A DNA stretch of 49,995 bases, filler included, from Streblomastix strix (GCA_008636045.1; 3 parts of 3 records of this genome joined end to end with filler, not necessarily neighbours in it); one strand, 5' to 3'. Numbered from the whole stretch's first letter, positions 1,450 through 49,995 are shown. Translations and numbers: made by a program. The notes: generated by a model from the letters alone, not told the origin.

Positions 1450-1529
<80 letters not shown>

Positions 1530-13729: not shown

Positions 13730-16608
13730 ATGACATTTTCATAATTCCTCGTTGCTTTTGTTGTCTTTAGCAATATTTTTTCACTGCCGAATTCGGAGTC
13801 TTCACATACACCCACGTCATCTTCCATGCTTCCACTTTAATCAAATACAGAACCATTTTTCAGATCTTCCAACGCTCCGTGCACTTTCGAGATCAGCAGC
13901 CAATATACTGAATATGATAATACTACTTTCACAGCCAAGAACATAACATCCGTTATTTCCGTTTCGTCTAACTTGTGTGCAGATGGATACTTCGCAACAG
14001 TGATTGATGCTTCACATACTGAATTTGTGAATATAACCAGAGATTTGTCTCGACCAATTGTTATCACAGTATGTTTTTATTTACTATATTTTTATAGATA
14101 TTTAAAAATATATATATATTATTAATTTTTTCTGTTATAACTATATATCCAATCCTTAATTCTCTCCAGGGCAATGCCACACAAGACGGGACCAGCATAA
14201 AAACACTGTGGCGCACAAACACAGTTACTGATAGTATAGTGCATCTCGATATGGGCGATTTAACACTGACAAACTTTGACTTCAGTTACATCAAATAGGG
14301 GAATTCGTTGTATCCAGAGAATTGCCTGGTTGATTCGTCTGAGTCAAGAACATATACGAAAAGGCTTAAAGTTACATAGTGTGTTTTCAACGGTTTGGGA
14401 TCAGGAACCGCAGTTCGATCGATACTTATAGGAAATTACCTTGATAATCTATAAATTAAAGAATGCGTTTTCTAAAATGCAGTGATAAATGGTCCTCGTA
14501 GTGCAGTATATTGTATATCAAACAAGACGTAAACAACTTACAGCGTCGAATTATCTAAATTTCAGAACATTCAGATACATTCAGCTTCTGCAACAGCGGT
14601 TCTTTCAATATCAATTATGGGGGATTTAAATATTGCATATGTGAATTAGTGCAACTTCACGAACTGTACTTGCACTGGTCAGAACAGCATATCAGGTGCT
14701 ATTTATCTGTAATCTGGAGTTTTGGGGTTTAATCACAGTTAGGTTATTATAATGAGTTCACTTTTCTTGGATAACTATGGGCAAGAAACTGGAGCGATTT
14801 ATGCAACAGGACTTCCATTAGTAAACTCTTTCAAAACAAATGGCTTTTCTGGGAATAAGAAAAATGGATCTGACCAAAAAAGTTGTGATTCTGTTCTACT
14901 TTGGACAAACTACAGCGTGAATTAAACTTTAGATGTTGCTAGAGATAAAGTAAGTAAATTGTTTGAACCAAGTTAATCGACGAGCAATTTTAGTGTATTT
15001 TTCAGATTTGTTATTAATAGTGCTACTGATGCTGAAGGGTACGTTAATATCAATCCTTCAATTGAGTTATGCAAATCAAAACTGCTTATTAATAGTAATT
15101 GTATGTGCGATCCATATTCTACTGCATATCCTGTTGATCAATGTTTAAAAGATAAAATTTGTGTTGTAGATCTAATTAATTAGACTAATGCAACCTGTCC
15201 ATGTTTGAGCACAGGTGATCCAAGAGCTGGAAAAGGATAATGTCCAGCATACTGTGTTAAAGGAAATCTAACATAAAATTGTGTATGCGATACAAATATA
15301 ACTAATTACACAGTTTAATAATGTTAATAGGAGAAGTTATGCACATTCAATTTGTCTAATCAAACAAACACCACCTGCCCCTGTTTAAATACATCTGATC
15401 CAAGAGCTGGTAAAGGATAATGTCCAGCATATTGTGTTAAAGGCAAAGTAACTCCAGATTGTGTATGTGATACAAACCTTACTGGTTATACATATTAGCA
15501 ATGTCAAACTGAGAAGAAATGTATAACAGATTTGATTAATCAGAATAATTTGTCTTGTCCATGTTTGTCAACTGGTGATCCTCGAGCTGGTAAAGGTACT
15601 TGTCCTGCTTATTGCACAGCTAAAGATAAACCAACTACCGATTGTGTTTGTGATTCAGGTCCAAATGCAAGTTATCCTTATTCTACATGTTAATCGAATA
15701 AGATATGCACTGAAAGTTCAAATTCAACAGTTACAAAAGATTCATGCACATGTTCAAGAACAAATTATCCTACAGGATGCAAGTGTCCAACAGATTCATC
15801 ATAATTAACTGGTATTCCATAAAACAGATGTGAATGTCTAAAAACTGGTGATCCCAGAGCAAATGGAATCTGTCCTGCTTATTGTATTAAAGGATAAGTT
15901 AATGCAAGCTGTGAATGTGACACAAACTCATCATCATTTCCTTTATCCAGTTGTCAAACTGAGAAGAAATGTATAACAGATTTGATTAATTAGAATAATA
16001 TAACTTGCCCATGTTTGAGCACTGGCGATCCAAGAGCTGGATAAGGTCAATGTCCAGCATACTGTATTATAGGATAAGTGACTGCAAATTGTACATGCAA
16101 TACAAATACATCAGGTTATACTGTTGATCAATGCCAGAAAGAGAAGTTATGTATTATAGATCTAGTTAATTAACCAAATACAACGTGTCAATGCCTTCCT
16201 ACTGGAGATCCAAGAGCTGGAAAAGGATAATGTCCAGCATACTGTGTTAAAGATCAAGTTAATTAATCATGTGTGTGTGATACAAATATACCAGGTTATA
16301 CATAAGCACAATGTCAGATCGAATACTAATGCAAATATAACTTAGCTAGTCAAACAAATGCAACTTGCCCATGTTTATCTACTGGTGATCCTAGAGCTGG
16401 ATATGGATAATGTCCAGCTTATTGCGTAGCAAAAGATTAACCAAGTTAAAGTTGTGTTTGTGATTCAAATCCAGGTGCATAATATCCTCCATCTTCATGT
16501 TAATCAGAAAAGAAATGCAATGTTAGTTCAAGTTCAACAGTTACAAAAGATTCATGCACATGTTCTGGATCAAATCATCCAACTGGTTGTAGATGTCCAT
16601 CTGAGACT
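13730..16608 (+). CDS. Secreted/surface protein: signal peptide, beta-helix-like region (GAIY, FxNC) and Cys-rich GDPRAG repeats; 3'-truncated by contig end
   Basis: MTFSQFLVAFVVFSNIFSLP...; intron 14069-14169 (GT..AG); motifs SGAIYLQ, TGAIYAT and CNFTNCTC; then repeated CPCLSTGDPRAGKGQCPAYC...CVCD. Confidence 0.85.
15090..16608 (+). repeat. ~180-bp (60-aa) Cys-rich coding tandem repeat
   Basis: GDPRAG-encoding motif at ~15214, 15394, 15574, 15847, 16024, 16204 and 16384. Confidence 0.9.
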
Positions 16609-16708
16609 NNNNNNNNNNNNNNNNNNNNNNNNNNNNNNNNNNNNNNNNNNNNTTAATTAATTAANNNNNNNNNNNNNNNNNNNNNNNNNNNNNNNNNNNN
16701 NNNNNNNN
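16609..16708. other. Artificial contig linker
   Basis: N44 + TTAATTAATTAA + N44 (100 bp), identical to 33304-33403. Confidence 0.97.
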
Positions 16709-19700
16709 TTCTTTTATTATTTCTTCTGGTTTTTAATCATCTTCTGGATCTTTTTCTGTTGGATCAAGAATATCAGGATCAGTTGGATTAATTTCTATTT
16801 ACTTACAAACTTATTCACCTCTTGGATCATCAACTTCTAGACATGGACAATTAGAAGTTGATTAATGAATTAAATCAACAATGCATAATTTATCTCTCTC
16901 ACATGTTGCTTGTGGGTATGAAGATCCCAATTCACACATACAATCAATAGTGAGTTCAACTTTTGAAATGCAATATGATGGGCAAATGTCGCCAGCTCTT
17001 GGATCACCTTTCATCAAACATGGACAGTCAGCTTTAGATTGATGTATTAAATCTATGATACATTTTTTATCTTTCTCACAAGATTCATATGGATAAGATG
17101 AAGATCCTGTATCACAAATACAATTTACATTTGTTTATCCTCTCACACAATATGTTGGACAAGCACCACCAGCTCTTGGATCTTAAGTTGTTCTGCAATC
17201 ACATATTGATTATGGAATTCCAATTAACTGTGATGAATTTGTTGGACACTTGCAACCATATGGATAATTTGATTCAATGCATGAACATGAATCTTATGGT
17301 ACTGAAGAGCCTGATTATGCAGTACATTTCTTATCTGATTAACACAACTAAGGAGGATATTATACATTTGGATTCAAATCACAAACACAAGAAGATGTTG
17401 GAATATCTGGTCCTATACAATATGCTGGGCAGGTGGTTCCTGCTCTGGGATCTGAAATATTACTACACTGACATTGAGATGTTGGAATATTAATCAATTA
17501 GGATGAATCAGTTGGACACTTGCAACCAGAAGGATAATTTGTTCCTGAACATGTGCATGAATCAGTTGGAACTGTAGAACTTGAACTTGCAGTACATTTC
17601 TTATCAGATTGACAAGTTTAAAGAGGATATTATGCATTTGGATTTGAATCACAAGCACAATTTGCATTTGGTGTATCTTTAGCTGTACAATAAGCTGGAC
17701 AGGTGTTTCCAGCTCTTGGATCACCAGTTGGCAAACATGGACAATCAGATGCAGATTAATGTACTAAATCCGTTGCACACAACATATCTTTCTGACATTA
17801 AGCCAATGGGAAAATAGTTGAATTTGTATCACAAACACAATTTATAGATACATAACCTTTCATGCAATATACAGGACAAAAACTACCATTTCTTGGATCA
17901 CCTGTTGATTAACATGGACAGTAAGATATATTCTGATGAATTATATCGTATGTGCATAATTTATCTTTCTCACAATCTGAAGAAGGATAAGATGTAGAAT
18001 TGGGATCACAAACACAATCAGATGTTAGTTCAGCTTTTGATTTACAATATGATGGACAAGTAGTACCAGCTCTTGGATCTTCTTCTGAAAGACATTAACA
18101 TTATGATATTGGTGTATCTTTAGTGATTGAGCTGCATGGATCTGAAATTATTATTGAACTAAGGTCATAATCAATTAATGGTTTTCTTCCAAGTTCTGAA
18201 TCAGCTCCAAATTCAGTTCCATAAATTGCATTAGTTTTGTTATATGAAGGTGAATTAATATTAATAAGGATACGCTATTATATATTCATTGATATGATAT
18301 TCCAACAATAAATGAATATATCTCGACCAAACAATTATGCTTTATTATCGATAAATTGAACTTAATTTCCAATAGTGAAATTATTTGTTGAATTTTGAGC
18401 CAGTGAAAGATAAATACTTCCACCTCGTCCTCCGCTGTTTGAACTCTATATTGAATTACATTCTTTGAATTTCACATTTCCATCAATTTTCAGTTAACCA
18501 GATTACACTAACCAAGCATAGATAGCTCCACCTTCTCCTCCAATACAAATACATTTATTAAATTGACAAGTACCTTATATAGTAAGTGATGAACCTGAGT
18601 TGATATATGCATAAATAGCACCTCCTTCTCTTCTGGATTAGCATAAGTCAAATATGCATGCTCCATCAATTGTTACTGATCCTTAATGGATATTTGTATA
18701 GATTAGGCCTCATTCTCCATTATACAAACACTCTGTAAAGTTGCAATTTGCGATCTATACTTTATCAGTTTCAATTTCCAAATTGATGTAAATTACTCCT
18801 CCAACGTAATCTGCAGTATTTTCTAAGCTCTTAAATACAGAATTGGTTAATGTTAATGATCCAGATTGAATGTAGATTACTGGTATAGTAAATTTTGTCA
18901 AATCATATACTTATAGATTATCAATTATTACAAAGTTAGCTTAATAGACAAATATCAATTGTTATTCCAATGATGTTTAATATATTCTTATATTTCTGAA
19001 TTAATTATTTCCTATAGCATAAAAGAGATAGTAATTAGGTAAAACAATACAATTATGAAAGTCTACTTAATTTATTGAGCTATATTCTGGTCCTGGAACG
19101 ATTAACGCTGATCCTAAAATAGTACTATCAGCATATACATTCAAATTTGTTACCGATAAATTTCCACTATAAAGATGAATAAAACCATCTTCTTAGATAA
19201 TAGCACTTTCATTAATAGATAAGTTAATTATTGTCAAGTTTAGCACTTAGCAATCCATAAAAAAATATTGATTAATAATACTACCACCACTAATTGTGAA
19301 ATTGTTGAAGAATGTGTTTCCTCCTATTAAACTAAAGAACCACATATCTCCAATTATTTAACTGCCACCAGTAATTGTCAAGTCATTGAATATATTAATA
19401 CCTCCCCAACCTAAAATGAAAGACTGTTATTCAATAATCTATCCAGATATAGTGAGATTTGCAATTGTTAAATTGCCTTCATCATGCTTAAATATTAATT
19501 TTTGTTTGATTGAACCACCAGTAACAAAGCAATTATAGATCTCAACTTTGGTCTAATCTCCTTATGAAATAATAGCTGCTTCAGCAATTCCTGTTAATTT
19601 CAAGTTAAGAGATTCAATGAAGAATGTTCCAGCATGAATAAATATATAAGAATTGCACATTAAATCTTTTCTGGTATCTTAATATGATGTTATTCCATGA

Positions 19701-28754: not shown

Positions 28755-31700
28755 ATGAGTAAATAATAGATTTAAAACCTACTAGACTAATTATAAGTTC
28801 AATATTTACCTAATTATAAATCAGTTGAATTAAGAAATATGTTAACTAATGAATTGCATCGTTTGAATTACTAAGGTCACATAACTGTTACAACTGAAAT
28901 TGTAGCTTTTGTAAATCAAATTGTTGCTATAAGAAATGAATAATAATAGTAATAATTAGAATAAGTTGAACAATAACAATAACCCTAATTATAATAATTA
29001 ATAGAAACAGTTGATGAATAGTATTAATAGTTGAATAATGATTAACATTAATCACAATTAGTCAAAAATATTGATGAGATCATAAATGAATTGGATTAAT
29101 CTGATAATACTGATGATGATCTATTCAATCCTGATAAATACAGAGCTAATTACAAATAAAAATTTGATTAAAGTGGTAGAAGATAGCGTATGCAATAATT
29201 GATACAAGCATAGCAATAAATCACCAATTAAATAAATTAGTTATAACGGTCATTATAAACAATTAATAGTATTTTAAGTGAAGAATTTGATTTAGATACC
29301 AACTCTGTTGACGGCATAAATGCTAATGAACAGATATAACCAACTGATATTAACGAAAATTATAAACTGTTGTTAGTTGAACAATAATTGAAACACTAAT
29401 AAAAATTAGATTAATAAGAATAGTTACATCAAAAAGAGATACAAGAATTAAAGGATAGATTAGAGAAATAGAATAAAGCAGCTGTTCTAATCCAAAAGCA
29501 TTATCGAAGGCATTTAGCAGAGCAACTAATGAAATAATCAATTAATTCTGCTAAGGTAATTTAAGGCAAATGGCGAAGACATAAGCTATACGAATAATTA
29601 GAATAGCTAATCATCAATTAAAGATATAAGAGATAGGGTGAAAAGCCATTTAGATTACTCAGTTATTTAGAAGCAAAATTAGGCGCTAAAGAGTTCGCAA
29701 AAAGAGTCAAAAAACTTAATGAAGAATATTATGGATTACATTAGAATCATTTTAGTGAACCGAGTATAACGAAAACATAGTAATTAAATAAAGATAGGGA
29801 ACTTGAATAGAAAGCATTCGTTATCTTCACACCATAGAATTTATAGGCTTATTATGTTGCATTAGATTAGGCATGATAGAAATTCTAGGATAAGAATGAA
29901 GTTAGTATAGAAGGATTATCTGATGGGCTAATGAAGTCGAAAGATATACTCAATAAAGAACCATATATTTAATACTATTACAATCATTTCTATGACTTAT
30001 AGCAACTGAAAATAAAATCTACTAGGTATATGAATTAGAGAAAGCTAAGCCTTATAAAGCATACATTAGTTTTGGATCTATCTGGTAGAAAAAGAAATAG
30101 GTATACAAGCATTAACAAACATTAGATGAATATCATTACACTCACACTACACCTAATGCTGGTGATAGTTACAAAACTCTATCTAACACAGTAGTTCGAG
30201 ATAAACAAACTAATGACTATTTCAAACAGAAGGCTGTCGATCTACTATCCGATTATTAAGATCCAATTCATGAAGATTCATCGACATTAATGACTGCACT
30301 ATATTCATTTTTGATTGTTGTTTACCGATTACCGTTAGGTACTAAAATGGATAAAATATGTTAGCACTTTAATAAAGAAGGTGTCACTAGGGATATTGAT
30401 TGTGAATATAATATATATTGGTTTATAGTAGCATCATTTGCATTGCACCCTGATATCGATAATAATAAGAGTAGGGTTAGTGATGCAATTAAATTGTTTC
30501 TCTAATACCATGACGTTAACTCAAGCTAGAGATTAAATAAAGCTAATAAATAATTACTCGAACAATATAAAGGTTTCAATTATGTAACTGATCTCGAAAA
30601 ATATCAATAAATATTCAAGCTAAACGTAATAACATATATGTGTGATGAGGTGAAACAAAAAACAAATCGTAGTGATGTCGAATAATTTAATAAATTTGAA
30701 GAACATATTATTGACAAGGACTATCAAACTGTTAATGTATTATTAGTTTCGTTGTCATTAGTCGATGAAATTCATGCAATGTATATTAGTGATATTGATA
30801 AGGTAATTAATGGAAAGCTCTGTCCTCTTAACTGTTAGACGATATTCAATACTAAGAACTAAAATTATAAGCGAGATCTTGCGAGACATTTGAAGTTCTG
30901 TTAGGGTCCATAGACAGCTAAATAAGTTAAATTAGATCATTTACCAAAGCCATATTATCCACATATATCAAATAATAAGTTACTCTAAAAATTAGTAGCA
31001 ACGGGCTAATCAGATTTGTTAATGCCAACACTCAATTACATTACATTTGATTTTGAGACAGTAAAGAACATAATTAATGAAGGTAATATAATAGCTTAAT
31101 TAGAACCATTATCTGTAGCGTCAGCAGCAACAATAAATGACTAAATTACAACGTAATATTTTGATTTACGAAATGGAACTGACTTTATTGAATAATGGAT
31201 AAGTTAATTGTTTGAAGTTGCTATTAAAGTCAATGAAGCTAATTAATCAAACATACCCGATATAACAATTGAAGATAAAAACTAGCATTAGCACGGAGTT
31301 TATCCATACAAGCCTCAAGTATCTGTTATTAGATTCAATTCTAAGAAATTTGATATAAATTTATTACTCAAACATCTACTTAAAAATAAGACTAAAATTT
31401 AATATTTAGGAACAACAACCTAGGCCAAACAAACAATTGTATCACATTAAGATTATGATTTTGACTTGAGATTTATTGATATACTATCATTCATTCCACC
31501 AAACAATACATTAAAGTAGTTCGTTGAGAAATTTGGAACCAAAGGTATAAAATTAACAAAGAGTATATTTCCACATGGATCATTCAATTATGATAACTAT
31601 AAATTAGTGTTAGGACTAACAATTCCATTCACTAAGGATGATTTCTATGACAAGCTTAATAATAAGAATATTAGTGATGAAGATTATGAATAATATGTTT

Positions 31701-33190
31701 ATGATTTCACTTCATTTCAAGACAGATGGGAGTATCTAAAGCACTATAATATCAGGGATGTTACTTGTATGATTAATCCAATCAATCATCTTATTCAAAT
31801 AACATGGGAGGAGAAATCAATATGTTAGGGTGTATATCATTAGCTCAAATTGCTAGTTAAATTAAATACAAGTACTGTTATGACAAGTTCGATATCAATG
31901 CAAGTTATAATATAGTTAATGGATTCGAATAATTCGAAGTCACTTAATACTGGTGGAATAACAAAGTTAAGGGATATATTAACCAAGATGAGTTTGCTAA
32001 GAGGGATACAACTAATAATGTAATTGAAGATGATATTGATTGGATTAGGGATAAAGTAGCTACTGAAACATGCCATCTATGTCACAATAAATTCACTAAA
32101 GAAAACAAACCCACATTAGATAGAATTGATAATTCAATTGGTCACACAAAATCGAACTGCCAACTTGCTTGTTAAATATGTAATACCGTTAAGGCTGATA
32201 AAGATAATGATATTAGTAAATTAAAGATATAATTAATGAAATATGCAATCCATGAACATCTACCTATGACTATTAACAACGAATCTGTATATAATATGTT
32301 AAAGAAATGTATGTAGGGTGGTTTGTCTAATGTGTTTCATTAATGTAATTTGAAAGGTGTCACACACATCAACAAACTTAGATATAATCATGTTACTAAA
32401 ACAATAACATCATATGATACTCCTCATATAATTACTCACATCCTTGACTTAGATTTCAACTCTCTCTATCCAAGTGTATTTAGTGGTATCTTCAACAAAA
32501 ATAACCCTTATACGAATAATCGAATATATCAAGCTGGAGGAGTAACTAGTTATTTCAAATGTACATCTAATAGTTCAAAATAGAAAGCTCGCGATGTAAT
32601 TATGAGTGATGATAGATATACTGACATTGGATAGCTATTCTGTGTTAAAATTAAAGGTCATATTGATGAAAAACATATTAACTCATATATCAAATTAGCA
32701 CCTATATGGAGGAAATTAACATACAATAATTCAATTGAATAGATAGGAGAATTTATGTACAATAAGATGAAATCATAGGGATTAACTGTTGATAAACCTA
32801 CTACAAAACTAACTTCATTGCTATCGACACACAATCAATTTATGTGCTTCACTAATTACATATTATGGTTTTTGATTGATTATTGTAATTTTATTATTGA
32901 TGACATTGATTCAATTGCTCTATTCGATAAACACCTAGGTTTTGAATCATTTGCCTGTACAATGATGGCTAAGAGATAGGATGCAATTAGCCAGCACAAT
33001 GACACGAAATCACTATACTACAAATAGATACTAAATAGTGCTTTTGGAGGAGAAGGATAAAATAATGCTAAATTTGATAAGATATCATTTAACAATGCTC
33101 GATAGACATCACTCAAATAATTGAAATTGGATCATAAGATAACAAGGAAATTAACTGATACTACATACAATTCTGATGGTGAAGTTATTG
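28755..33190 (+). pseudogene. polB: Protein-primed family B DNA polymerase (pPolB), disrupted and truncated
   Basis: ExoI YITFDFET (31037-31060), ExoII xFNSKKFD, ExoIII YLKHYNIRDV, motif A LDFNSLYPS (~32450-32475), motif B YKQILNSAFG (~33020-33048). In-frame TGA at 29874-29876; frameshifts near 30010 and 31818; motif C absent. Confidence 0.92.
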
Positions 33191-33303
33191 TATGTTAATT
33201 TCCTCCATATAGGTGCTAAATTGATATATGAGTTAATATATTTTTCATCAATATGACCTTTAATTTTAACACAGAATAGCTATCCAATGTCAGTATATCT
33301 ATC
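33185..33303 (-). repeat. Fold-back inverted copy of 32611-32729
   Basis: 119 bp reverse complement with 2 mismatches, at the contig end. Confidence 0.9.
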
Positions 33304-33403
33304 NNNNNNNNNNNNNNNNNNNNNNNNNNNNNNNNNNNNNNNNNNNNTTAATTAATTAANNNNNNNNNNNNNNNNNNNNNNNNNNNNNNNNNNNNNNNNN
33401 NNN
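33304..33403. other. Artificial contig linker
   Basis: N44 + TTAATTAATTAA + N44. Confidence 0.97.
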
Positions 33404-35067: not shown

Positions 35068-35260
35068 ATAATGATTAATAAATTGGACTGGGTTGATTGG
35101 ACCGAGTCAAAACATCAATGTATTTTATGAAATTGGCACAAAGAAATGGAATCGTTAATGAATGACTTTTGACTGGACCGTGTGGATTGGGTGGATTGAG
35201 TCAAAAACTTTTATAAAAAGCTGTGGCCAACTGGACAACTGGCCAATAATTGAGAAAAAT
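35068..35260 (+). repeat. Intergenic palindromic element, copy 1 (long form)
   Basis: TGAATGACTTTTGACTGGACCGTGTGGATTGGGTGGATTGAGTCAAAAACTTTTATAAAAAGCTGTGGCCAACTGGACAACTGGCCAATAATTGAGAAAAA. Confidence 0.95.
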
Positions 35261-35283
35261 AAATAAAAATAAAACCTATTAAA

Positions 35284-36364
35284 TCATTTGAATTTATATT
35301 TAGCTAAATCAAAACCACCTATTTATTCATGTCTCTATGTTAGAATTTGACCATAATATTACATGGCTTAACCAAGTGTTTCCTTAATTCTAGCATCGAC
35401 ATCTTTGGCTTAATATAATTGAGTAATAACGGTAGGCAATTCTTTATTATATAATCTTTTAGCAAATGGCAAAAATTCGTATTATCGTTACTAAATTTTA
35501 GTTTTATTGCTTCTGTTATATATGTCTATTTTTCCATCTTATCTTTCTAATATTTCTACCGCAGGACTAATAAGAACTGAATTCCAAGCAGATGCCATTA
35601 TTTGTTGTTTGATTGCCATTGGCAATTATGCGCCTCCATTTTGGTTTATGATTTTTTTGGCGTTGACGGTGAATGCTCTGAAACTAAAATTCTTTATCTC
35701 CCTTACCTTATGCGGCTTAGTCATTAACAGCCATTTCATGTAAGGGCCGCCTTTTATTCCAGATGCTTTTAATTTGGCTGCCAATGCTGCTCGTTCTAAA
35801 TCATTAACATCTGAATAATATTTTTTCTTCCAATTTCTTTTATGTTAATGCTCTAAGTCGCCAAATCCTACAGCTGTTGTATAACCATCGACTGAATAAA
35901 TCGCGTTCTTTTTCTTATCAAATACAACCACATTATCAGGAGTGGCTACATTATCATCTAAATCTTATTCCAATACACTAAATCGTTTGTCTAAATGCTT
36001 ATCTTATATATATTTTTTGGGCACTGACGGCAGACGATAAGCTATTAATTTTCTTCATATCTCTGTTCAAATAACCGACAAGTGTAGCAAGAACATCACC
36101 CGCCTCTTCTCTGAATTATGGGCCTCCATGCTTTCTTGTTGTTTGAATCATACTGGGATGGAACGGCAGCCTACCAAACGGTTTTGCTCGTGATTTCATT
36201 CTGTCCTATCTTGAAGCTTGTGATTCATAATAATCGTAATCATCCTCCATTCCGTCAATGTCCATCATCCCACCTGCACCACTAACACCTAAGCCTTAGC
36301 CTTTTTCCGTTTCAAATTCTTATCTTGCTTCCTTTTCAATTTATTTTAAATCGAATTCTGACAT
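35284..36364 (-). pseudogene. ~360-aa viral hypothetical protein (one +1 frameshift)
   Basis: MSEFDLKQIEKEARQEF...EQDLDDNVATPDNVVVFD...IYSVDGY...KYKFK*TGA; span 1081 = 360x3+1, with the shift near 36015. Confidence 0.7.
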
Positions 36365-36403
36365 TCTATTTCTTATCGAAAAAAAAAGTTTTAAATAATA
36401 AAA

Positions 36404-37193
36404 ATGGCGAGTTTAACATAAAAAAGTTGATAATATGTTAAAAAAAAATAAAAGTGAATAAGCACGAAATTTAAACTTTTATTCATAAAGAGTTAAATTT
36501 TACATATAACTCTGTAAATTTATTGATTGATTAGCGCGGCAGTGGCAAGACGTATAATGTCTTCAAAGAGTTAATAAAATTAAGTTAATTAAAAAAACAT
36601 TGTTATACACTATTCATATATGTCAGCGACTCAAATAATGACACCACTTATAAAAAGATGAAGGATTTAATTAAAATACCGATTAAAATTATTCCATATG
36701 CCGAAACGGATCAAGTGCTGAATGATTTGATAGAATGTAAATAAGCGTATGATGGAATATAAGAAAAATAATTATAAAAAGAACTAACTGAACAATCAAA
36801 AGATGATATATTAACCAATGTATTTGGTGCTAGTGGAGAAGGTAATTTTGACGTCAAATTTCCCCATATGATTGTTTTATTTGACGATGCAATGAGTATA
36901 TTTAAAAATAAAAATAATCCATTATTTAAGAAGTTATTTAAGAACTGATAACCCAGAATAACATACTTCCTTTGTTTATAGGACATCATTGGTTTGGATG
37001 CTGCGATTAAATCAAATCTTGATTCATTGTGGTTCTTCGGTTCATTTAACAGATTAAAATTTAATTAATTTTTTTATTAATCTTCAATACCATCAGATAA
37101 AGAAACAATATGGTATGAATATGTTCGACTAACTAAATAATAAGCATTAGTGGTATAATATAAAATGAGTGGAACAGTTGTTAAAATAATTTG
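36404..37193 (+). pseudogene. A32-like (FtsK/HerA) genome-packaging ATPase
   Basis: Walker A LLI[D]QRGSGKT (36529-36552, first Gly mutated), Walker B HMIVLFDDA, Arg-finger region KN[TGA 36946]QPRITYFLCLQD; frameshifts near both ends. Confidence 0.88.
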
Positions 37194-37216
37194 AAAACAT
37201 TTGAAAAAAGCAAATA

Positions 37217-37324
37217 TTTATTTTTCTCAATTATTGGCCAGTTGTCCAGTTGGCCACAGCTTTTTATAAAAGTTTCTGACTCAATCCACCCAATCCACAC
37301 GGTCCAGTCAAAAAGTCATTCATT
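37217..37324 (-). repeat. Intergenic palindromic element, copy 2
   Basis: Reverse complement of the copy-1 core; starts at the TGA stop of 37320-37670. Confidence 0.95.
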
Positions 37325-37704: not shown

Positions 37705-38591
37705 TCATTTGTGTTCAAGTTATATATTCATATATTCCTTAATTTTATTTATGACTTCATCAGTTAAATCTTCATTAAATATATATTTAGTTCCTTTAAA
37801 TTAAATACCTTCCATATTTTTATTTAAATATTCTTTGATGGCTTCATTTTTGGTCATTGCAATACATTCCTAATCATAGTATAAAAATGCATCTTTTAAT
37901 TTCTACATCAATTTTCGACTAATACATTTCTTATTTCTTCTTCGAACCTTTAAAATTGTATTATTTTTATCATCAACTTCTATATATTGAACGGCTAAAA
38001 CATAAGCTGTTTCTATGCCTTATGGAACAGCTCTTGGTTTCAATTGTTATATTTCAATATCTTTTTAATTTATTATTATTTTTAATTCATTTTTTTTAGC
38101 TTTTATTTCTTCATAATTTCGATCAAATGTTATACTTTTGCATGATGCAATAGAAGTTGAATCGTCTAACTAATATTCTAAATGTATTCTTTCATCTAGT
38201 AAATCCATTATTTCATTTACATATTCTAAATATTTAACTGACGTTTTCATGCAGATAATATTCAGAAATTTCTTATGTGCATATGCTCCTCTTATTTCAT
38301 TTGATAAAGATAATGGAAGTTAGTAAATCAGGGGTGGCTCAAATTGAGCCGACCTCCTAATTCGAGACAAGATTTATAGTCTTAAAACATTGGAGAACGA
38401 ATTATGTTTTTTAATTATTTATTTGTTTTTTCTTACTAATTTATTTATTAAACAAATTTTGTTGCATTAATATAATCGTCTTTATCTCGGATTATTATAT
38501 TGAATCCATTATTTGAGCCAACAGTAAAATTTTCATTGTTTGTTGCAATTGATTATATTGTTCTGTTGTTTTGTTCGTTTGTTGATTCCAT
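37705..38591 (-). pseudogene. KilA-N domain protein (frameshifted)
   Basis: NGFNIIIRDKDDYINATKFVQQ...NEIRGAYAHKKFLNIICMKTSVKYL, then coiled coil and LKPRAVP; frameshift near 38340-38370. Confidence 0.8.
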
Positions 38592-38647
38592 CTTATATAC
38601 AGATAAAAAGTTAAATTTGTATAAAAATAAAACGATTTATTTTAAAA

Positions 38648-38956
38648 TCATTTAATTTATTTTATTTTTTCATCTGCTTCTTAAATTTTTAATTCTAATT
38701 TCTTTATATTTTTTTTACAAACTGTTTCAGATTCAATATTTCTTAAATTGGCCTCTTTTTAAATTAATTTCATCATTTCTATCATTTTTTATTTTGCATT
38801 AATTAATCTTTCTTATTCATATTCATAATCAATAATTTTAAACTCTAAGTCTTCTCCATCTCTTTCAGCTTGCACTAATAAAAATTTCATAGTATCTACC
38901 ATAAAAATTCGTGCATATTTTTCAAAACTTAAATTCTATTTCTCATTATTTGCCAT
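38648..38956 (-). CDS. 102-aa coiled-coil hypothetical protein
   Basis: Intact ATG..TGA ORF under table 6: MANNEKQNLSFEKYARIFMVD... Confidence 0.6.
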
Positions 38957-39514: not shown

Positions 39515-41235
39515 TCAGGCACTTAATGGTCCAATAACTTCATCAAATGAATGGTTTGTATCATATATGCAGCTACCACCTGCAGCGCGTGAAAACAACC
39601 AAAATGTATCATGAACTGTGCATAAAATAGGATGCGGTGGTATCTTTCCGCTGGAATCAACATTATAATATGAATCTGTAGCTCCTTGATATATTGGTGC
39701 TCCTCTGAGTTCGACAGATGTGTTTTAGTTTTGTGTGTCTAATCTGTCAAAAGTTAGTGCTCCGTTGCTGTTCCTTTCACATTATAGAGTTATCAAAAAG
39801 CTTGTTAAATCTGTATGAGGGTTCAGTCTTCGGGTTGCAGTATTTCTTAGCATTGTCAAAGCATCTTCGAATTCATCAATGGCTTCGAATAAAAGGTCAA
39901 GATTTGACGCATTGAGTTATAATTGGAAGAGTTATTGGTCTAGCGTATTCATGGGCATATCTGGGAAATTACGTCCGCAGGTGGTTACTTGCATGTTCTG
40001 ATAGCAAGGATTTTCAAAGCAAATCGTAGCTCTTGCATCTTTAAGGAACAGAAGGCAGAAGTCGGTTACGTGAGACAGAGGAATATTATAAGATGTTCGT
40101 ATTCATGTTAAAGTAGCAGACGTTGGAAATGGCCATACTTCCACACGTTGAGCGGGAACAACAAATGGACGTTAGCTGTATAATTTTCGGACTCGATTAA
40201 GGCATGCATCAGTAGCTTTATAACCTGCCATGTTAGCGGTTACCTCTGTTATGACATAATTTTTTATGCTTATGGTGACCGGTTTGATGTCGCATATTAA
40301 GTTTTTCAATCCTGACTCAGTTAGTGGTTCCGCATGTAGTCCTGTAATCAAGTCAGAAGTGCATCCCAATTACGTAAATTATTTAGTATATTGGAATGTC
40401 AGACTCCAATTTCTGAACATCAAATCAATATCCATTTTCTTCTATTGACTGCTACCCAATAACTCATCTTTATTCATTGTATAATATTTAGCCATTGAAA
40501 TTATTGGATTCACTTGACAGAAAACGAATGCATGAGGATTAATTTTGAATTTTATTTTTAAATCACCAAATTGGCCATTAGGGTAGTCAGTGAATGCAGA
40601 GAATATCAAGAGGTCATCAAGTGGAATGCTGACTTTGAAACGTATTGGAATTGTATATGGAATGGATGTTTGATTTCCTATTAGCTCTTCAATCTCTCGC
40701 ATATTTATATTTGTTCCACACGCTAACGTATCAAAATTATGAATGTTCTCGTATAAAGAATGTATATGTTTTCTATTATTTTTCTCACTTTTTGGCTTGA
40801 TTGTATTATAAATGAATGATTCAGTTGTTGCGTCATTCTATAAGTTTCCATCAATAGTTTTACCTCTATGATAGATGGTATATTCGAGAATAAGATTTGA
40901 GCCTGATTTGAGACCTACGAATAGAACCAATCCGTCTTTATATGATTCGTCAATTTTATCAAATTTATCATCGAGTTAAATATTGGCAGTTAGCACTACC
41001 GACAAGAATGAATTTTATATCTATGTGATGTCGTGGTCTGTGTCTGATAAACTAATGATTATCTCCTTATCAAATAAGCTGGCATTTATGATTCTGGTTT
41101 GATTTCCTTGATTGAATAACGATGTTCTCCGTCATTAGTGAATGGAACGATAGCATTACCTAACAATGTTTCTTCAATTGTTCCTGCTTGTTGTAAATGT
41201 GTGGCTTTCATTAAGAATCTGTTTATCTTTTACAT
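39515..41235 (-). pseudogene. Probable major capsid protein (~570 aa, double jelly-roll inferred)
   Basis: Long beta-rich ORF: LFVGLKSGSNLILEY...FKVSIPLDDLLIFSAFTDYPNGQFGDLKIKFKINP...FVVPAQRVE...CFENPCYQNMQV...ITLQCERNS. Size and context next to ATPase and fibre genes fit an MCP. Frameshift near 41075 and TGA at 40103-40105. Confidence 0.7.
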
Positions 41236-41303
41236 TCAATAAAAAATTGAAATAGTTAAATATAAACGTAATGAAATAAAAATCATTTATTAAATATTTA
41301 TGA

Positions 41304-41387
41304 ACCATGTGGATTGGGTGGATTGAGTCAGAAACTTTTATGAAAAGCTATGGCCAACTGGACAACTGGCCAATAATTGAGAAAAAT
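41304..41387 (+). repeat. Intergenic palindromic element, copy 3 (5'-truncated)
   Basis: ACCATGTGGATTGGGTGGATTGAGTCAGAAACTTTTATGAAAAGCTATGGCCAACTGGACAACTGGCCAATAATTGAGAAAAA. Confidence 0.95.
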
Positions 41388-41726: not shown

Positions 41727-41808
41727 AACTTTATTTTTAATAAAAATAAATTTTTATATGTACTATTTTGGATTTGAATAATTGATCGATTTATTTTTCA
41801 TTAATAAA

Positions 41809-41987
41809 TTGGCCAGTTGTCCAGTTGGCCACAGCTTTTTATAAAAGTTTTTGACTCAATCCATCCAATCCACACGGTCTAGTCAAAAGTCATTCATAAT
41901 TTAATCCACTTCTTCGTGCCAATTTCCTAAAATTCATCTATGTTTTGATTCGGTCCATTCAACCAAATCCATTTTATTAGTCATTAT
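41809..41987 (-). repeat. Intergenic palindromic element, copy 4 (long form)
   Basis: Reverse complement aligns with copy 1 over ~180 bp. Confidence 0.95.
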
Positions 41988-42012: not shown

Positions 42013-43593
42013 TCACAAATAATACATTCCACTGGCGTAATGTTTATAAACATCAGCTGAATCTATTGGGATTGACTCTTATGGTTCTTATAATTAAAAG
42101 TATAACATTTTAAATTATGAATTTACTATAAAATAATTCACTGAAAATTTATTCTATCTTCCGCCCTATGTGCTACATATAGTTGCAGGGAAGCCCAAAT
42201 TTTTACCATCTGCAGGTATTACAGAATCAGGAATACGACCAACTTCTTACGTTCTGCCATTTAAACCTTTAGATTCAAAATATAGATTGAATACGCATAC
42301 TCTACAAGTGTCATCATCAACGATATAGAACGTATTATATGCTGATGAGGGGAAAAAATCATTTATCATAAACTGATTATAAACATTTGTTATCGTATAT
42401 TGTGGTTGTGGCGATGAACCTAATTATTTTTCATGTTTTATTATTACTTCGTCGATGTGAGATTCTACATCTTCAGGTGCTGACTCGTTGGCGTTTGTGC
42501 TGTTCGTATAGTTATCAAGTATATAAGTTCTTTAAAATTCACAATCTAGCATATTCAATTATCCGCTGACGGCCACCTATACAGCTGATGATTTATCATA
42601 CATATCCTTGAACAAACTCATAGCAGAAAATTCCTGTTGTTCGACATGAATAGGCATATATTTCGTATTAGGTGGTAGTAGTTTTTTGCTGATTGTCGAA
42701 AATAATTTATATACAGTCTATTATGCTTCATAATTGGCACCTAATTGTGTCAATTTTGCCCTAAAGCTATAAGTGATGAATGGACCATCTTTAATAAAAT
42801 ATGCTGCTCTATCTGCTTTATATCTCGCTAATTCATCCATAAGTTTTATTTCACTGTTCAAATAATTAGTTCGATTTAGCCCTTACACTACCGCCTCGAT
42901 TAAATTTGTTTAATTTTTCACTGTTTTATAAACGTACGATTAGGCTTCAAATTAACCATTTCCATTAACATTCCATGTATCCATAATGTCAATTTTTCCG
43001 TCATTATTGGAATCATAATTTATTTTTTTCGATGATTCATAATTTCTATAATATGTGATATTAAGCACAAGAGCAGTATTTGACGGCAGCCACCGAGAGC
43101 TTATAATAAATGGCACTCCTTAATCGATATAACAAAATATGTTATATGTATTGGAGGCATCGGTTCCAACTAATGCAATCACTTAATCACCCTGTTTTGG
43201 TCTCGCTTCTTGTGGATAACTTTAAAATAAATAACCGTTCGGAAATACACCTGTTGTTGCATATGACGCGGTAAGTGTAATTCCATCGCCATAAACGACT
43301 AATTATTGATCTGAACCACTGGAGGCTAAAAAACTTTATCGCTCTAATTATGTACTCAAATCCAATTTCGTTATAGCATTCGGCATTGGTGGCTCGAACT
43401 TTTCATTTGATGCGTAGATAATATCATCGTTATTTTTCACTTGCTACTACAGAGTTTGGTTTCTAATTGGAACAGATTGCGGCTGTTGCTCGAGTGGCTT
43501 AGGATAACGTTCTTTGATATATGCGTATAATTCTGGGAAGTAAGATAAACCAGCAGCGTCTAATAATCTTTCATCGATATAAACATTTGACAT
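42013..43593 (-). CDS. 526-aa protein with three repeated beta-domains resembling fibre/receptor-binding heads
   Basis: Intact ORF (527 codons). Recurring segments YLFQSYPQEARP, KLFSTISKKLLP and EVGRIPDSVIP, each preceded and followed by beta-strand-like patterns. Confidence 0.65.
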
Positions 43594-43654: not shown

Positions 43655-46563
43655 TCAAAGCATCCAACTGAATTATAAGCCAACATCATCATTAATACCC
43701 AAGCTTCTGTTGAGTCGGTAGTTATTCGGAAATCTCAATATGAATACACACATGTTAATGTCTTTCGCTTCATTGCGAATGAAATAGGATATGTAGTGCT
43801 TGGAGGTGTTGGAGGAGTTATGGAATTACTTATGCTTCCAACAGTGCAAATTGTAGTTTATGTAGAAATATTGATTTAAGTTTTTGGTTAAATTTCCATC
43901 ATCAAAGTATAAAAAATGCCTATTCGAGTAAATTTTAAATAATTGAATGTAATATTAGAATCTAAATTGACAACTAAATTTGTTATGTCCTCCACTTGCA
44001 CTCCTCCAAATGATGATAATAATTGGTAACCGCCACCAGCCAATAAAATCAATGTATCATCCTTACCTGTTTTAGCAAATCCAGCTGCACTAACATTTGA
44101 ATTGAATGTTTTTGTGCCATATATCGTTTAATTATCATAACGACAAACAAAAGCATTATAAATTTCTCCTCTTGTCAAATAATCTTTATCATACTCCGAC
44201 ATTGATAACTCATCATCATCTATTCGTAAAACTCCATGAATTATTTAAAGTTCTTATCCCGTTTTTTTCACATAATTAGAATCATCAACACTTCCACCTC
44301 CGAATTCAGAAATTGGTTTTGTTCCACCTGCTCCAAGTAATACAACGCTATCATCAGCACCTGATTTAACAAATTATGAGCCTGTAATTGTTCCCATTCC
44401 ATTGATAGAACTTACGAACCTACAAGCATTATTGCATGTCTTGTTCGCTGTTATTGTCTATGAAGTGCCCAAGGTCATATAACCGCTTAAATCAACATCA
44501 CCAACTTCAATTTATGATATCAAATAATCAGTTTCTGTTTTTGTATAAGTTGTTGATTGATTTGCTTTCAACAGCAGCAACGCATCATCTTCACCTTTTG
44601 TTTATGAAACACCTGAATTGGCTTTATTACTGAGCAGATTATCGGCTTCTCCTTTAATGTATGAATCGATTAATTATGTCTTATCAGCCTTCAACAGCAG
44701 CAGAGCATCATCCTCTCCTTTGGTGTATGAAACTCCTGAATTAGCTTTATTACTGAGCAAATTATCGGCTTCTCATTTTGTGTATGAATCAATCAATTAT
44801 GTTTTATCAGCCTTCAACTGCAGCAACGCATCATCTTCTCCTTTTGTATATGAAACACCTGAATTGGCTTTATTATTGAGCAAATTATCGGCTTCGCATT
44901 TAGTGTATGAATCAATTAATTATGTTTTATCAGCCTTCAACAACAACAGAGCATCATCTTATGTCTTAGTGTATGCATCGATTTAATCGCTTACGTTTAA
45001 TTTGTCGTCGAGTAGAGCATCGGCTTCAATCTTCGAATATACATCAATTAATTATGTTTTATCAGCCTTCAACAATAGCAACGCATCATCTTATGTCTTA
45101 GTGTATGCATAAATTTAATCAGAAATATTTAATTTTAGATTTAAATTTTAATCTTTTTCAGTTCATGAATAATTTTATGATTTATTATAATAATTTGAAA
45201 AATTAACGCTTGCATTTACGTCCTGTATGGCCTTAACACCACCACCAGCACAAACAACAGAATTATTATCGTAATTTTATACAGATATTCCGACTGTGTG
45301 GATAGTTGTATTAAATATCTTTTAACCTGTAATAGTTTCATCATAGTTAGTCGTTATAAATGAACTATTTTTCGCAGGTATTAATGTATTTCCATCAAAT
45401 GATAAATCTGTTATTGCATTGCCTCCTCCTGTAGCAGCTCCAAGAATGGTCATGACGATGCTCATATCTGGCAGTTCTGTTTCTAGTGCTCGAAGATTAG
45501 AGCCATCCCACCAATAATCCATGATTTACTTATCAACTATATATAAATTATCACCAATTGCTAATTTTGCAACGTTTTCCTAATCTTCCATCCAAGTATT
45601 CATCTGATCCGTAGTCGCGAAGACATATCCTTTTGATTCGCCTGAAGCGATATCTCGAACTTCTTATAATTATGACTATGATACTAATGAACTTACTAGC
45701 ATATCACCATCACCAGCTAGAAGAATTGATTCATCATTTTTATTCAATTTCGATATGCTTGAAACACTTATTATTCCGAATTATTCTTGACCTGTTATTG
45801 TTTGAGCCGAAGTTAAATCAACATAATCCGCTAACTCTGTTTTATCAGCCTTCAATAATAGCAGAGCATCATCTTTCTATTTATTATAAGCATCAATTTA
45901 ATCAATAATATTTAATTTTTCATCAAGTAAGGCATCAGCTTCAGACTTATTATATGCATCGATTTAATCGCTTACGTTTAATTTGTCGTCGAGTAGAGCA
46001 TCAGCTTCTTATTTGGTATATGCATCAATTAGCTCAGTTTTATCAGCTTTCAATAATAGCAGAGCATCATCTTCAGTTTTCGAGTTAGCATCGATTTAGT
46101 TATAAATATTTAATTTATCATCGAGTAGGGCATCGGCTTCAATCTTCGAATATGCGTCGATTTAATCGGATATATTTAATTTATCGTCGAATAGGGCATC
46201 GACTTCGGTTTTATTGTATGCATCAATTTAGTCTGAAATATTTAATTTTAAAGCAAGCAATTCATCATCTTCTGTCTTCGAATATGCATCAATGAGCTCT
46301 GATTTATCAGCTTTCAATAATAGCAGAGCATCATCTTCTTATTTCGTATATGCATCAATTTAGTCGGAAATATTTAATTTTTTATCTATCATTTCATAAA
46401 TTTCTTCACGATTATAAGGTTTAGACGCTTCATTAGTTATATTTATTATATTTTCAATATTTTTTACTTCGTTAATTAAGCCAATAGTGTTATACTTACT
46501 TGAACCATAAAGCACTTAATCATGATTTAACACAACATCAAGCATATGCAAATCTCCGTCCAT
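43655..46563 (-). pseudogene. ~970-aa fibre-like protein with phage-tail-fibre-type repeats
   Basis: ~20-aa repeats (D)AYTKxEDDALLLLKADKTQLI and AYSKIEADALLDDKLNISDQI; QTITGQKxF..SILLAGGG modules. TGAs at 45163, 44773 and 43735; frameshift near the 3' end. Confidence 0.8.
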
Positions 46564-46594: not shown

Positions 46595-47131
46595 TCATAT
46601 TTTATTTAACACAGTCATTAATCCTTTAGATACTGCACTAATAATTTTGCTTGTAATTTCTCCTGAATCTAAAATATTTTTTATTTTTCTTATTTTTTAT
46701 AAACAAATTTTATAGCTATCCCTTAATAAATTTACTTTTTCGACGTCGATCTTTAATATATTTACGTTTCCAATCAATATCTCATTTAATGTTTAAGTCG
46801 AATCGCTGCAAAACCTACCACTACATCCTTCATCCTCTATACTCAATTAAATTTAACTTTCTGGGACGTCGAAAGTGTAGGCAACAACCCGAATCAAATA
46901 ATTTTCAGATAATATGAAATGCACTGATTCTTTAATCATATTCTCGTCTTCACTAATGACATCCAACAGCCAACGACACACTGAAGGGTCTGGAGTTAAA
47001 TTTTCTTCAAAAATTGAACTTCTGCACCTAGCTGACAAGGTTGGAGTTTCACATCTGATAACCTGTTGCTGAAATGGGTCAATTTCTTTTTCAAATTATG
47101 GTTCCACTTCTGGAATAGTTGGACTCTTCAT
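46595..47131 (-). CDS. 178-aa viral hypothetical protein
   Basis: Intact ORF (179 codons): MKSPTIPEVEPQFEKEIDPF...VLNKI*TGA. Confidence 0.7.
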
Positions 47132-47505: not shown

Positions 47506-47632
47506 TTGGCACGAGAAAATGGAATAGATAGTGAATGACTTTTAGGTGTTCCGAGTGTTCCGAGTGTTCCGAGTCAAAAAATTTTAAAAAATGCTGTGGC
47601 CAACTGGACAACTGGCCAATAATTGAGAAAAA
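47506..47632 (+). repeat. Intergenic palindromic element, copy 5 (variant with (GTGTTCCGA)3)
   Basis: TGAATGACTTTTAGGTGTTCCGAGTGTTCCGAGTGTTCCGAGTCAAAAA...GCTGTGGCCAACTGGACAACTGGCCAATAATTGAGAAAAA. Confidence 0.93.
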
Positions 47633-47714: not shown

Positions 47715-48795
47715 ATGGAATCAAAAGACAATCAAGCACAAACTAGCCATTCATTAACAATTCAAGAACGTATCTAAAATTTGTATGTGAATACTTATGA
47801 TTATAATAAATTTCCAATCATTTGTAAAACAGGCAAATCATTTTCAGGTAGAGCAATCGACATATCAAAATGTTAAAATCTTGCTGTTGTTGATATTGAT
47901 ATAAATAAAAATTTAGATAAATTAATATAAAAATAAATTCGAGAATTAATCGTTGAAAAAATTCCTTAAATGTGGGATTAATCAAAACAGAACATGGAGA
48001 ACTTCATATATATTGTGATATCAATGGATTTGAATTATAGGGAACATCAAATATATAAGTTTATAAAAGTGATAATTTTAATGTGGATATATTTGCATGT
48101 GTTGATGATAAACAAAGATGGATTATGTAATATGGGTCAAAAATACGTGATAGAGTTAAAGCAACAAAGCAAATGGAAGATTAGAACGAATAAATTGGTG
48201 AAATTAAAGTTGTATATTAATATGAGGCAATAAATGATTATTTAAATAAAATAAATTTATGTGAATTAGGACAAATTTTGAACATATTCGGAATAGATTT
48301 TGATGTTAATTAATAGGTCATGACAAATTAAAAGGAATAACATAATGAGTAAGACAAACCACTGCTACAACCAACAGGATTAATCGGTATGAAAAAGGAT
48401 TTCGTGATTATGTTATGTAAAGGAATTAGTGGTCTTTAAATACATAACGACTCATAACGTCATAATTTTAATGATGAAATAACTTTACTTCCATTATTTG
48501 CTGCAATTAATAGTATAATTAATATTGAAGGAATTGATAATCAATATATTTGAGAAACATATAAAAAAATAAAAATTAATAATAATTTAACAGATAAAGC
48601 AAAATAATTATTTGATGCAGCTAAAATAAGATATGAATAAAAATAATTACATCCATTCGTTTTATAAAAAATAATTAAAAAATATAATCCAAAATATTAT
48701 TAAGAATATGTAATGCCTATGTTAGTGAATGAAAAAAGATGTAAAAATTTAATTGAAGTATAATAAATTGATTTAAAAGATAGTTTCACATTATT
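47715..48795 (+). pseudogene. Prim-Pol (AEP superfamily primase-polymerase) N-terminal region, frameshifted and truncated
   Basis: Motif I NLAVVDIDIN (~47877-47906); motif II KTEHGELHIYC (~47985-48016). Confidence 0.8.
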
Positions 48796-49995
48796 CATGT
48801 ATTAAATTTTATTCTTTTTATTTGCTGCATCATATTATTTAACTATGAATACTTAACCTCCATCACATGGTTCAGTTCGTAATATTCTGGTTAAGTCCTG
48901 AGCTATTGTTTCATATTCATTATATTTATAGATACCATTTTATAACTTTTTTTTACATATCAAATAATGTGAAACTATCTTTTAAATCAATTTATTATAC
49001 TTCAATTTAATTTTTACATCTTTTTTCATTCACTAACATAGGCATTTCATATTCTTAATAATATTTTAGTTTATATTTTTAGCTATTTTTTATAAAACGA
49101 ATGGGTGCGATTATTTTTTTTCATATCTTTTTTAGCTATTTCAAATAATTATTTTGCTCTCTCTGTTAAATTATTATTAATTTTTATTTTTTCATATGTA
49201 TCTTTAATGTATTGATTATCAATTCCTTCAACATTAATTATACTATTAATTGCTGCAAATAATGGAAGTAAAGTTATTTCATCATTTAAGTTATGACCCT
49301 ATGAGTCGTTATATATTTCAAGACCACTAATTCCTTTACATAACATAATCACGAAATCCTTTTTCATATCGATTAATCCAATTGATTGTATTAGTGGTTT
49401 TTCTTACACATTATATTATTCCTTTTAGTTTGGTATGAACTATTAATTGACATCTAAATCTATTCCGAATATGTTCAAAATTTGTCCTAAATCACATAAA
49501 TTTATTTTATTTAAATAATCATTTATAGCTTCATACAAATATATAACTTTAATTTCTCCAATTTATTCGTTCTAATCTTCCATTTGTTTTGTGGCATTAA
49601 CTCTATCGCGTATTTTCGACCCACACTACATAATCCATCTTTGTTTATCATCATCACTTGCAAATATATCCACATTAAAATTATCACATTTATAAACTTA
49701 TATATTTGATGTTCTCTATAACTCAAATCCATTAATATCGCAATAAATATGAAGCCCACCATGTGCTGTTTTGATTAATCCCACATTTTAAGGCATTTTT
49801 TCAACGACAGATTCTTGAATTTATTTTAAATTAATTTATCTAAATTTTTATTTATATCAATATCAACAACTGCAAGATTTTAACACTTTGATATATCGAT
49901 TGCTCTACCTGAACATGATTTACCAGTTTTGCCAATGATTGGAAATTTATTGTAATCATAAGTATTTATATACATATTTTAGATACGTTCTTGAA
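48796..49995 (-). pseudogene. Second, inverted Prim-Pol copy
   Basis: 48963-49995 is a diverged reverse complement of 47761-48795, with LAVVDID and KTAHGGLHIYC. Confidence 0.8.

Follow-up and report, generated by a model that had tools for sequence, protein, structure and literature searches.

A broken copy of a probable trimeric attachment fibre gene in an endogenous Polinton-like virus of Streblomastix strix, whose sister copies bear at least nine, likely recombined, tips

The window, that is, the whole stretch of 49,995 nucleotides (filler included) analysed here from the oxymonad Streblomastix strix, a termite-gut protist, consists of three contigs with N spacers between them. The last contig (33404–49995; 16,592 bases) carries on its minus strand, from 46563 to 43655, one fibre-like gene once TAA and TAG are read as glutamine (genetic code table 6). 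We read it as the broken copy of a gene that likely encoded the trimeric attachment fibre of an endogenous Polinton-like virus, with sister copies that bear at least nine tips and have likely recombined, and we give this reading a probability of about 0.8; that the gene family encodes fibres is in itself quite probable. An earlier note, made from the sequence alone, had described a bacteriophage-tail-fibre-like protein in a eukaryotic endogenous virus, but mentioned neither that the copy is broken by three TGA stops and a frameshift nor that the window is made of three joined contigs.

The whole window is AT-rich and open reading frames (ORFs) are nearly absent from it under tables 1 or 11. 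Both codes were rejected for the fibre gene, as the minus strand of 43655–46563 holds no long ORF under either of them. In the table 6 frame that starts with the ATG at 46563, glutamine is encoded by 34 TAA and 4 TAG (38 codons) against 8 CAA/CAG. The two repeat blocks that the earlier note had placed at ~45840–46400 and ~44520–45180 were found at 46416–45823 (nine units) and 45171–44497 (eleven units), the latter composed of six units of 22 amino acids (aa), four of 19 aa and a final partial one, and both were detected in the DNA by Tandem Repeats Finder (periods 66/132/198 and 57/123, scores up to 627). All four of the expected QTITG...LLAGGG modules are also there, but they do not alternate evenly with the repeats: the order is repeats, module, central block, module, repeats, module, module, tip (Table 1). 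The strict repeat motif matches the protein 16 times and the module pattern four times, with maxima of 0 and 0 across 2000 shuffles; as both patterns were derived from this very sequence, the test speaks for non-randomness only. The N-terminal segment of 49 aa opens 15 proteins, the window's copy counted, and the T0 tip is 117 aa long in open paralogues.

Table 1. Features of the fibre-like gene and of its neighbours, in coordinates of the window
Feature	Position	Strand	Remark
Fibre-like gene, code 6	43655..46563	−	broken copy (3 TGA stops, 1 frameshift)
N-terminal 49 aa	46417..46563	−	recognisable in full-length paralogues; putative capsid-anchoring end
Repeat block 1, aa 50–247	45823..46416	−	nine 22-aa YxKxExDxLLxxK units; putative shaft
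Module 1	45706..45804	−	QTITG...ILLAGDG
Central non-repeat block	45340..45705	−	DYWWDG motif; basis of stalk tree
Module 2	45238..45339	−	ETITGQKIF...VVCAGGG; BppL_N-like in paralogues
Repeat block 2, aa 465–689	44497..45171	−	eleven 22- or 19-aa units; contains first two TGA stops
In-frame TGA, aa 467	45163..45165	−
In-frame TGA, aa 597	44773..44775	−
Module 3	44323..44460	−	QTITANK...VLLGAGG
Module 4	44029..44130	−	QTIYGTKTF...ILLAGGG; conserved joint immediately ahead of tip; putative crossover zone
Tip domain, type T0	43655..44007	−	predicted receptor-binding head fold; third TGA and frameshift inside
In-frame TGA, aa 943	43735..43737	−
178-aa ORF upstream of fibre	46595..47131	−	28 matches; fused to fibre in many gene models; no family
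526-aa ORF downstream of fibre, open	42013..43593	−	64 matches; possibly second fibre-like gene
Major-capsid-like gene	39518..41229	−	broken (TGA ~40105; frame change near 41080)

Paralogues that match the flanks of the three TGA codons (28, 11 and 22 matches, respectively) have ordinary residues at these sites, and at 45163–45165 none of the 28 matches is interrupted. TGA as a sense codon was rejected, because the paralogues keep ordinary conserved residues at all three sites and TGA closes the frame of the family. A frameshift lies near 43700, and the last residues of the family then follow in another frame, up to the TGA ending at 43655. With three stops and a frameshift the full protein cannot be made; as judged from the sequence, the window's copy is a pseudogene of the fibre family from which at most a truncated N-terminal half would be produced, and it can matter only as a donor. 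At 43735–43737 the window differs from related contigs of all four sequencing runs that we searched. The database gene model at this locus (P0002), whose first 104 aa are 100% identical to the window, steps over the breaks and merges three ORFs, and we read this fusion as an annotation artefact.

The gene belongs to a large family within one genome. At E ≤ 0.001 the fibre protein has 234 homologues and its C-terminal part 143; the best 120 in each case are all from S. strix (the other 114 and 23 matches are weaker), as were 10 of 10 further representatives looked up. In a profile search the best 150 of 469 matches were examined and all belong to the fibre family, the remaining 319 being weaker. 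The modular and length-variable fibre proposed earlier agrees with the repeat-motif matches, which number 3–11 in block 1 (15 full-start proteins) and mostly 3–17 in block 2 (54 proteins), although these counts are rough because the gene models are faulty.

The fold was predicted by AlphaFold2 on a paralogue consisting of module 4 and a T0 tip (P0145, 22-row alignment). The tip was all-beta, as the earlier note had supposed of the terminal domain, with a predicted local distance difference test score (pLDDT) of ~68–93 per block, while the stem was not confident. In VIA-align the top rank was taken by the receptor-binding head of phage bIL170 (2fsd; Z 10.2, root-mean-square deviation 3.2, 105 of 110 residues aligned), followed by Listeria phage PSA gp15 (Z 9.8) and the Pa223 tail needle (Z 8.8); these three were the only chains at Z ≥ 8 and every one is a phage tail part, whereas adenovirus, reovirus, Zamilon and TP901-1 heads reached at most 6.8. 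Foldseek with the tip gave 11 matches at E ≤ 0.001 in BFVD, with all seven named ones phage proteins, and in the PDB it returned the same viral set, including Zamilon Zav_19, at weaker values. Three copies of residues 655–982 of another paralogue (P0028) gave a trimer score of 0.78 against 0.00 for the best of three controls, with contacts at least 93% shared between runs and a pLDDT no lower than 78; the same residues touch each other across the chains, i.e., in register. Of 30 solved pairs 21 had attained the score mark used, and of 23 single chains none. The likeness to trimeric fibres noted earlier thus holds at the level of models: in paralogues, the C-terminal third is predicted to form a parallel homotrimer and the tip to have a receptor-binding-head fold. 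Jeudy et al. (bioRxiv 10.1101/2023.01.23.525297) find this head fold in unrelated viruses, from phages and virophages to adenoviruses, reoviruses and marseilleviruses; it therefore names no donor.

The gene has a virus-like setting. The capsid-like gene lies 2.4 kb downstream and has 214 homologues, and a paralogue of it scored 0.96–0.98 to Parabasalia, Preplasmiviricota, Capsid_N and Sputnik-MCP clusters in a search by language-model Atlas features. Fused gene models repeat the order 178-aa ORF, fibre, 526-aa ORF, 121-aa ORF, capsid-like gene, and in 18 further cases a fibre and a capsid gene are at most four locus tags apart and their contigs have the same length. Relatives of the capsid were confirmed in 0 of 64 IMG/VR candidates. 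The host code, the decay and the hundreds of diverged copies fit endogenous elements, in accord with the earlier note, and Bellas et al. (PMC10120064) place S. strix capsids within a Metamonada group whose elements use the host code and are treated as endogenous. The PHROG scan of the fibre's neighbours found no tail, baseplate, portal or head family, and the gene does not appear to be a Caudoviricetes tail fibre proper.

The most notable result came from comparing the tips of the genomic copies, as the earlier note had suggested. Past the conserved end of module 4, the paralogues split into distinct tip domains of 103–120 aa. Against nine reference tips, 166 of 329 proteins could be typed, the types T0 to T8 being represented by 57, 46, 35, 10, 5, 5, 4, 2 and 2 proteins, and the types are at most 35% identical where they align over at least 40 aa. 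In these gene models the tips do not follow the stalks. A stalk tree was built from the central block with 60 rows, namely those of 154 matches in which no fewer than 170 residues aligned and the tip could be typed. On this tree the tip type changes 31 times, where the least possible is 7 and the mean of shuffled tips is 32.9 (46 of 200 shuffles were as low); each of its four large starred clades contains several tip types, and the starred branches alone force four to five changes for each of T0, T1 and T2. The window's central block is 91% identical to that of a T1 copy and 90% to that of a T3 copy, compared with 65–70% to many T0 copies.

The same was seen with the capsid, for which a tree of 17 rows was made (the window, 15 of the 18 locus-tag pairs and one fused model; three pairs were dropped as they had no typed tip). 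Here the tip type changes six times, the least possible being 2 and the shuffled value 7.1, with 43 of 200 shuffles as low, and the window's capsid is 93% identical to a capsid paired with a T1 fibre. At short range, 124 typed proteins were compared: every one of the three spacer types that precede module 4 is combined with six or seven tips, and no association was found between the two commonest spacers and the three commonest tips (p 0.31; 21 spacers were unclassified). Over the 40 aa before the tip anchor the median likeness was 0.90 to a different-tip copy and 0.875 to a same-tip copy. As an observation apart, three proteins (P0027, P0073 and P0285) have an extra shaft insert with RxDHxH motifs ahead of module 4, a fourth spacer kind, which we take to resemble metal-binding fibre repeats.

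Recombination in module 4 would be the simplest cause of this mixing, and genuine swapping of tips seems rather probable. It is unlikely, though worth weighing, that the fibre is correctly identified but the mixing is an artefact of amplification or of short-read assembly across near-identical repeats. The one assembly holds hundreds of similar copies, chimera-like structures occur on the fibre's contig (an inverted duplication of 2.2 kb) and on the neighbouring one (an inverted polymerase piece), and four sequencing runs contain no long piece that spans the gene. However, the mixing persists across ~70 aa, within read-pair distance; module 4 differs by ~10% between the nearest copies, which would give an assembler private letters to follow; and nine tips against four starred stalk clades make a one-to-one match impossible. 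Related contigs in the four runs, which come from three studies, extend over 29–30 of 30 bins.

Several results weigh against our reading as a whole. All the paralogues are gene models of a single assembly and many of them contain false introns or fusions, so a chimeric assembly could mimic swapping, and among the pieces listed from the four runs none bridges stalk and tip. Almost half of the proteins (163 of 329) have no typed tip, and T2 barely matches the other types in sequence. The stalk tree has 57 inner branches, of which 32 lack resolution, and this brings the number of changes closer to that of the shuffled tips; one five-row clade of the capsid tree is all T0. Both fold and trimer were predicted on paralogues instead of the window's copy, T0 is the only tip folded, and the trimer model covers nearly none of the repeats. 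The three-copy model was unlike its calibration and left the supplied alignment unused, and it may have passed because solved phage trimers resemble it. No Foldseek match in the PDB reached E ≤ 0.001, identities were 7–16%, and bacterial adhesin domains reached Z 6–7.5 in VIA-align. The capsid call comes from one language-model search, the gene having no Pfam or PHROG match; the contig yielded neither a penton gene nor an integrase nor a host flank, and Pfam names only a KilA-N domain among its ORFs.

If the gene family is indeed that of a fibre, intact copies would form a homotrimeric spike of three chains wound in register, with the N-terminus probably docking on the capsid. The repeats of 19–22 aa would make up the shaft, whose length would change by gain or loss of 57- or 66-bp units, and the QTITG...LLAGGG modules would serve as trimer joints akin to the stem found in the receptor-binding protein of TP901-1. 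Judged from its fold, the head at the C-terminus would attach to a surface ligand, most likely a glycan as for several structural neighbours of the tip; its bearer would be the host or a helper giant virus, or else surface bacteria. The conserved module 4 would supply homology for exchange of heads between co-resident or co-infecting elements, and an exchanged tip would alter specificity and leave the capsid untouched. Head swapping is familiar in phages. We consider it slightly better than an even chance that the endogenous Polinton-like viruses of S. strix act as a genomic library of at least nine heads, swapped at a conserved joint independently of stalk and capsid lineage; with about the same confidence, a eukaryotic DNA virus would here shuffle tips in the manner of phages, drawing on integrated copies, dead ones included, as donors.

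Where the parts of the fibre came from was examined by sequence searches. The repeats match PHROG 5004, to which no function is assigned, at 5.6e-20, and the tail-fibre PHROG 10305 was found in 6 of 13 paralogues. Weak tblastn matches to the repeats lie in 15 Bacillus SPO1-like records, a further match in a siphophage-type tail region (L006), and 43 of 93 residues are identical to a protein encoded amid head, connector, tail and terminase genes in a phi29-like virion module (L007). BppL_N (PF18338) gave no match at E ≤ 0.05 in the window's protein; in the 13 paralogues scanned it exceeds the 25.8-bit cut-off once (29.2 bits) and lies below it in seven more. Phage homologues of the modules, which the earlier note had proposed to look for, do exist. 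A 425-aa tail protein of a gut-phage record (L002) is identical at 30 of 51 residues (E 6e-7 in 50,697 records) and its own tip matches a tail-fibre PHROG; short matches were present in 2 of 83 IMG/VR candidates and in one of 352 metagenome candidates. The L002 record (1–11505) is unannotated and derives from faecal samples, its long tail-region ORFs appear only with TAG read as glutamine, and the recoding and the source suggest that it may be 'crAss-like'. A neighbour gene in record L003 matches a Cellulophaga phage, the neighbour in L004 matches no phage, and BppL_N was found in neither of the two records behind them.

For the tips and the central block no phage or bacterial sequence homologue was seen among the matches listed, and a phage tblastn with the central block gave one weak match, to the module only. 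Sequence searches of the window's protein against Pfam and the PDB gave nothing useful, a profile against the PDB gave one row (3ejc, E 0.86), and a search with the tip by Atlas features returned outside matches that were all below 0.9 and serve as leads only.

S. strix bears Bacteroidota ectosymbionts. The earlier note had suggested acquisition from phages of gut bacteria or ectosymbionts, and a recent gain of the whole fibre from a phage infecting either bacterial symbionts of the protist or bacteria of the termite gut would suit the fact that the nearest outside matches of the modules are phage tail regions (the TAG-recoded faecal record, two IMG/VR contigs and one metagenome contig) and that the structure of the tip resembles phage heads more closely than adenovirus knobs. 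We regard such direct gain as improbable. Each match covers only ~27–93 residues, the phage matches being ~50–90 aa long; the repeats match other phages than the modules do; and no tip or central block is matched outside, the best 150 of 469 profile matches being all of the fibre family. As the matches are short, from unrelated groups and absent from tip and central block, a single recent symbiont-phage donor is not supported. In GTDB genomes 0 of 133 candidate stretches were confirmed, and the host code used throughout (38 TAA/TAG against 8 CAA/CAG) points to long residence. Moreover, phage-like fibres are general among Polinton-like viruses, and those with BppL_N also occur in elements of Paulinella (PMC12220804), which has no link to the gut. 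From these matches, the parts of the fibre appear to belong to a toolkit shared with many phages.

It is very improbable that the family is a domesticated repertoire of host surface adhesins, for example for holding ectosymbionts, and no longer part of a virus: the very high copy number, the variable tips and the adhesin likeness of the tip would suit it, but the copies sit in a fixed cassette with a capsid-like gene, no signal peptide or membrane anchor is visible by eye in the fibre protein, and the window's fibre copy and its capsid gene have both decayed.

The putative attachment fibre can be compared with known systems. Many Polinton-like viruses are described as having phage-like fibres, BppL_N being present in 411 elements of Paulinella and PTR repeats in those of Trichomonas (PMC12220804), a phage-fibre-like protein, Ltf, was reported in Gezel-14T particles (bioRxiv 10.1101/2022.07.28.501842), and MELD virus maps label such fibres (PMC8502044). 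Like the fibres of the first two reports, that of S. strix is a long modular repeat protein of a capsid-bearing protist element with BppL_N motifs, and in both cases trimer and attachment role are deduced. Unlike in them, Pfam scans detect none of the Peptidase_S74 chaperone, collagen, LamG and PTR domains in it, and it has a terminal head domain, YxKxExD repeats and nine tip types in one genome. With the siphophage receptor-binding proteins of bIL170 (head, 2fsd), PSA (gp15, 6r5w) and TP901-1 (BppL, 2f0c and 3ejc) it shares the predicted head fold (Z 10.2, 9.8 and 6.6, respectively), a BppL_N-like stem motif and a predicted homotrimer; it differs in its 8–14% identity, ~1000 aa, long repeat blocks, eukaryotic host code and the lack of tail or baseplate genes beside it. 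Zamilon Zav_19 (7qrj), Noumeavirus NMV_189 (7qrr) and adenovirus knobs have the same broad fibre-head fold (Z 5.8–6.8), but the S. strix tip is nearer to phage heads by Z and no adenovirus-type shaft family was matched in Pfam. The small repeat protein of PHROG 5004 and SPO1-like phages and the YTKxE repeats of phage tails have the same motif as the S. strix repeats (38–48% identity), in units of 16–19 aa that are few, in contrast to the S. strix blocks of 19–22 aa; in phage SP82G the 'tail fiber' label sits on a 122-aa gene amid mostly hypothetical small genes. The Metamonada-group viruses of PMC10120064 share the host, TAA/TAG as glutamine and a capsid tied to Parabasalia clusters by language-model features.

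The words 'fiber', 'fibre' and 'tail' are absent from the main text of PMC10120064, and PMC12220804 does not mention Streblomastix, its passages on 'swapping' and 'recombination' concerning other matters than fibre tips. In the open literature searched, no paper was found that describes the fibre of S. strix or an exchange of tips between the Polinton-like copies of one genome. Both the endogenous viruses of S. strix and the presence of phage-like fibres in Polinton-like viruses have been published, and the repertoire of nine tip types is apparently new. The phage likeness itself is ordinary and the window's copy is dead. The fibres by which Polinton-like viruses may recognise host or helper have so far been catalogued only by lists of Pfam domains. 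Here one genome offers a matched set of one stalk, nine divergent heads and a defined joint. If swapping is true, the elements change specificity as tailed phages do, and the tips would provide nine small trimeric domains for expression and glycan-array screening.

Among the other genes of the contig, the 526-aa ORF may encode a second fibre-like protein. Its model (mean pLDDT 49.5) has one confident beta-domain at ~aa 80–182 with two further beta-rich stretches behind it; the domain gave weak matches to atadenovirus fibre heads (E 0.02–0.03), with unrelated matches among them and none at E ≤ 0.001. KilA-N was found above the Pfam cut-off at 38328–38651 and 37705–38250 on the minus strand, the gene being apparently split across frames. 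The ORF at 36118–36948 has a Walker-A-like motif by eye and no Pfam or PHROG family match. A non-coding element of ~90 nt with two TGGCCA palindromes is present in five copies, in both orientations and 80–99% alike (35167–35265, 37215–37313, 41301–41387, 41808–41888 and 47540–47632), and is possibly a promoter or recombination signal of the viral element. At 47761–49995 there is an inverted duplication of ~2.2 kb with arms ~90% alike, either a hairpin end or an amplification chimera; its ORFs match no family and contain a motif that presumably relates to primase-polymerases.

The spacers at 16609–16708 and 33304–33403 carry a TTAATTAATTAA linker and join three unrelated contigs of ~16.6 kb, and ORFs spanning them are artefacts. 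The middle contig has, at 30290–33303, broken polymerase-B-like ORFs (motifs by eye) and an endonuclease VII/HNH domain (PHROG 1035, 1.5e-10), and at its end an inverted copy of part of the polymerase-B-like region; the polymerase-like ORFs at 30290–33231 were rejected as context of the fibre, as they lie on a different contig. Cysteine-rich repeat proteins with a recurring GDPRAG motif and no Pfam family are encoded at 14071–16600 on the plus strand and at 16712–18289 on the minus strand, and these are likely host surface proteins.

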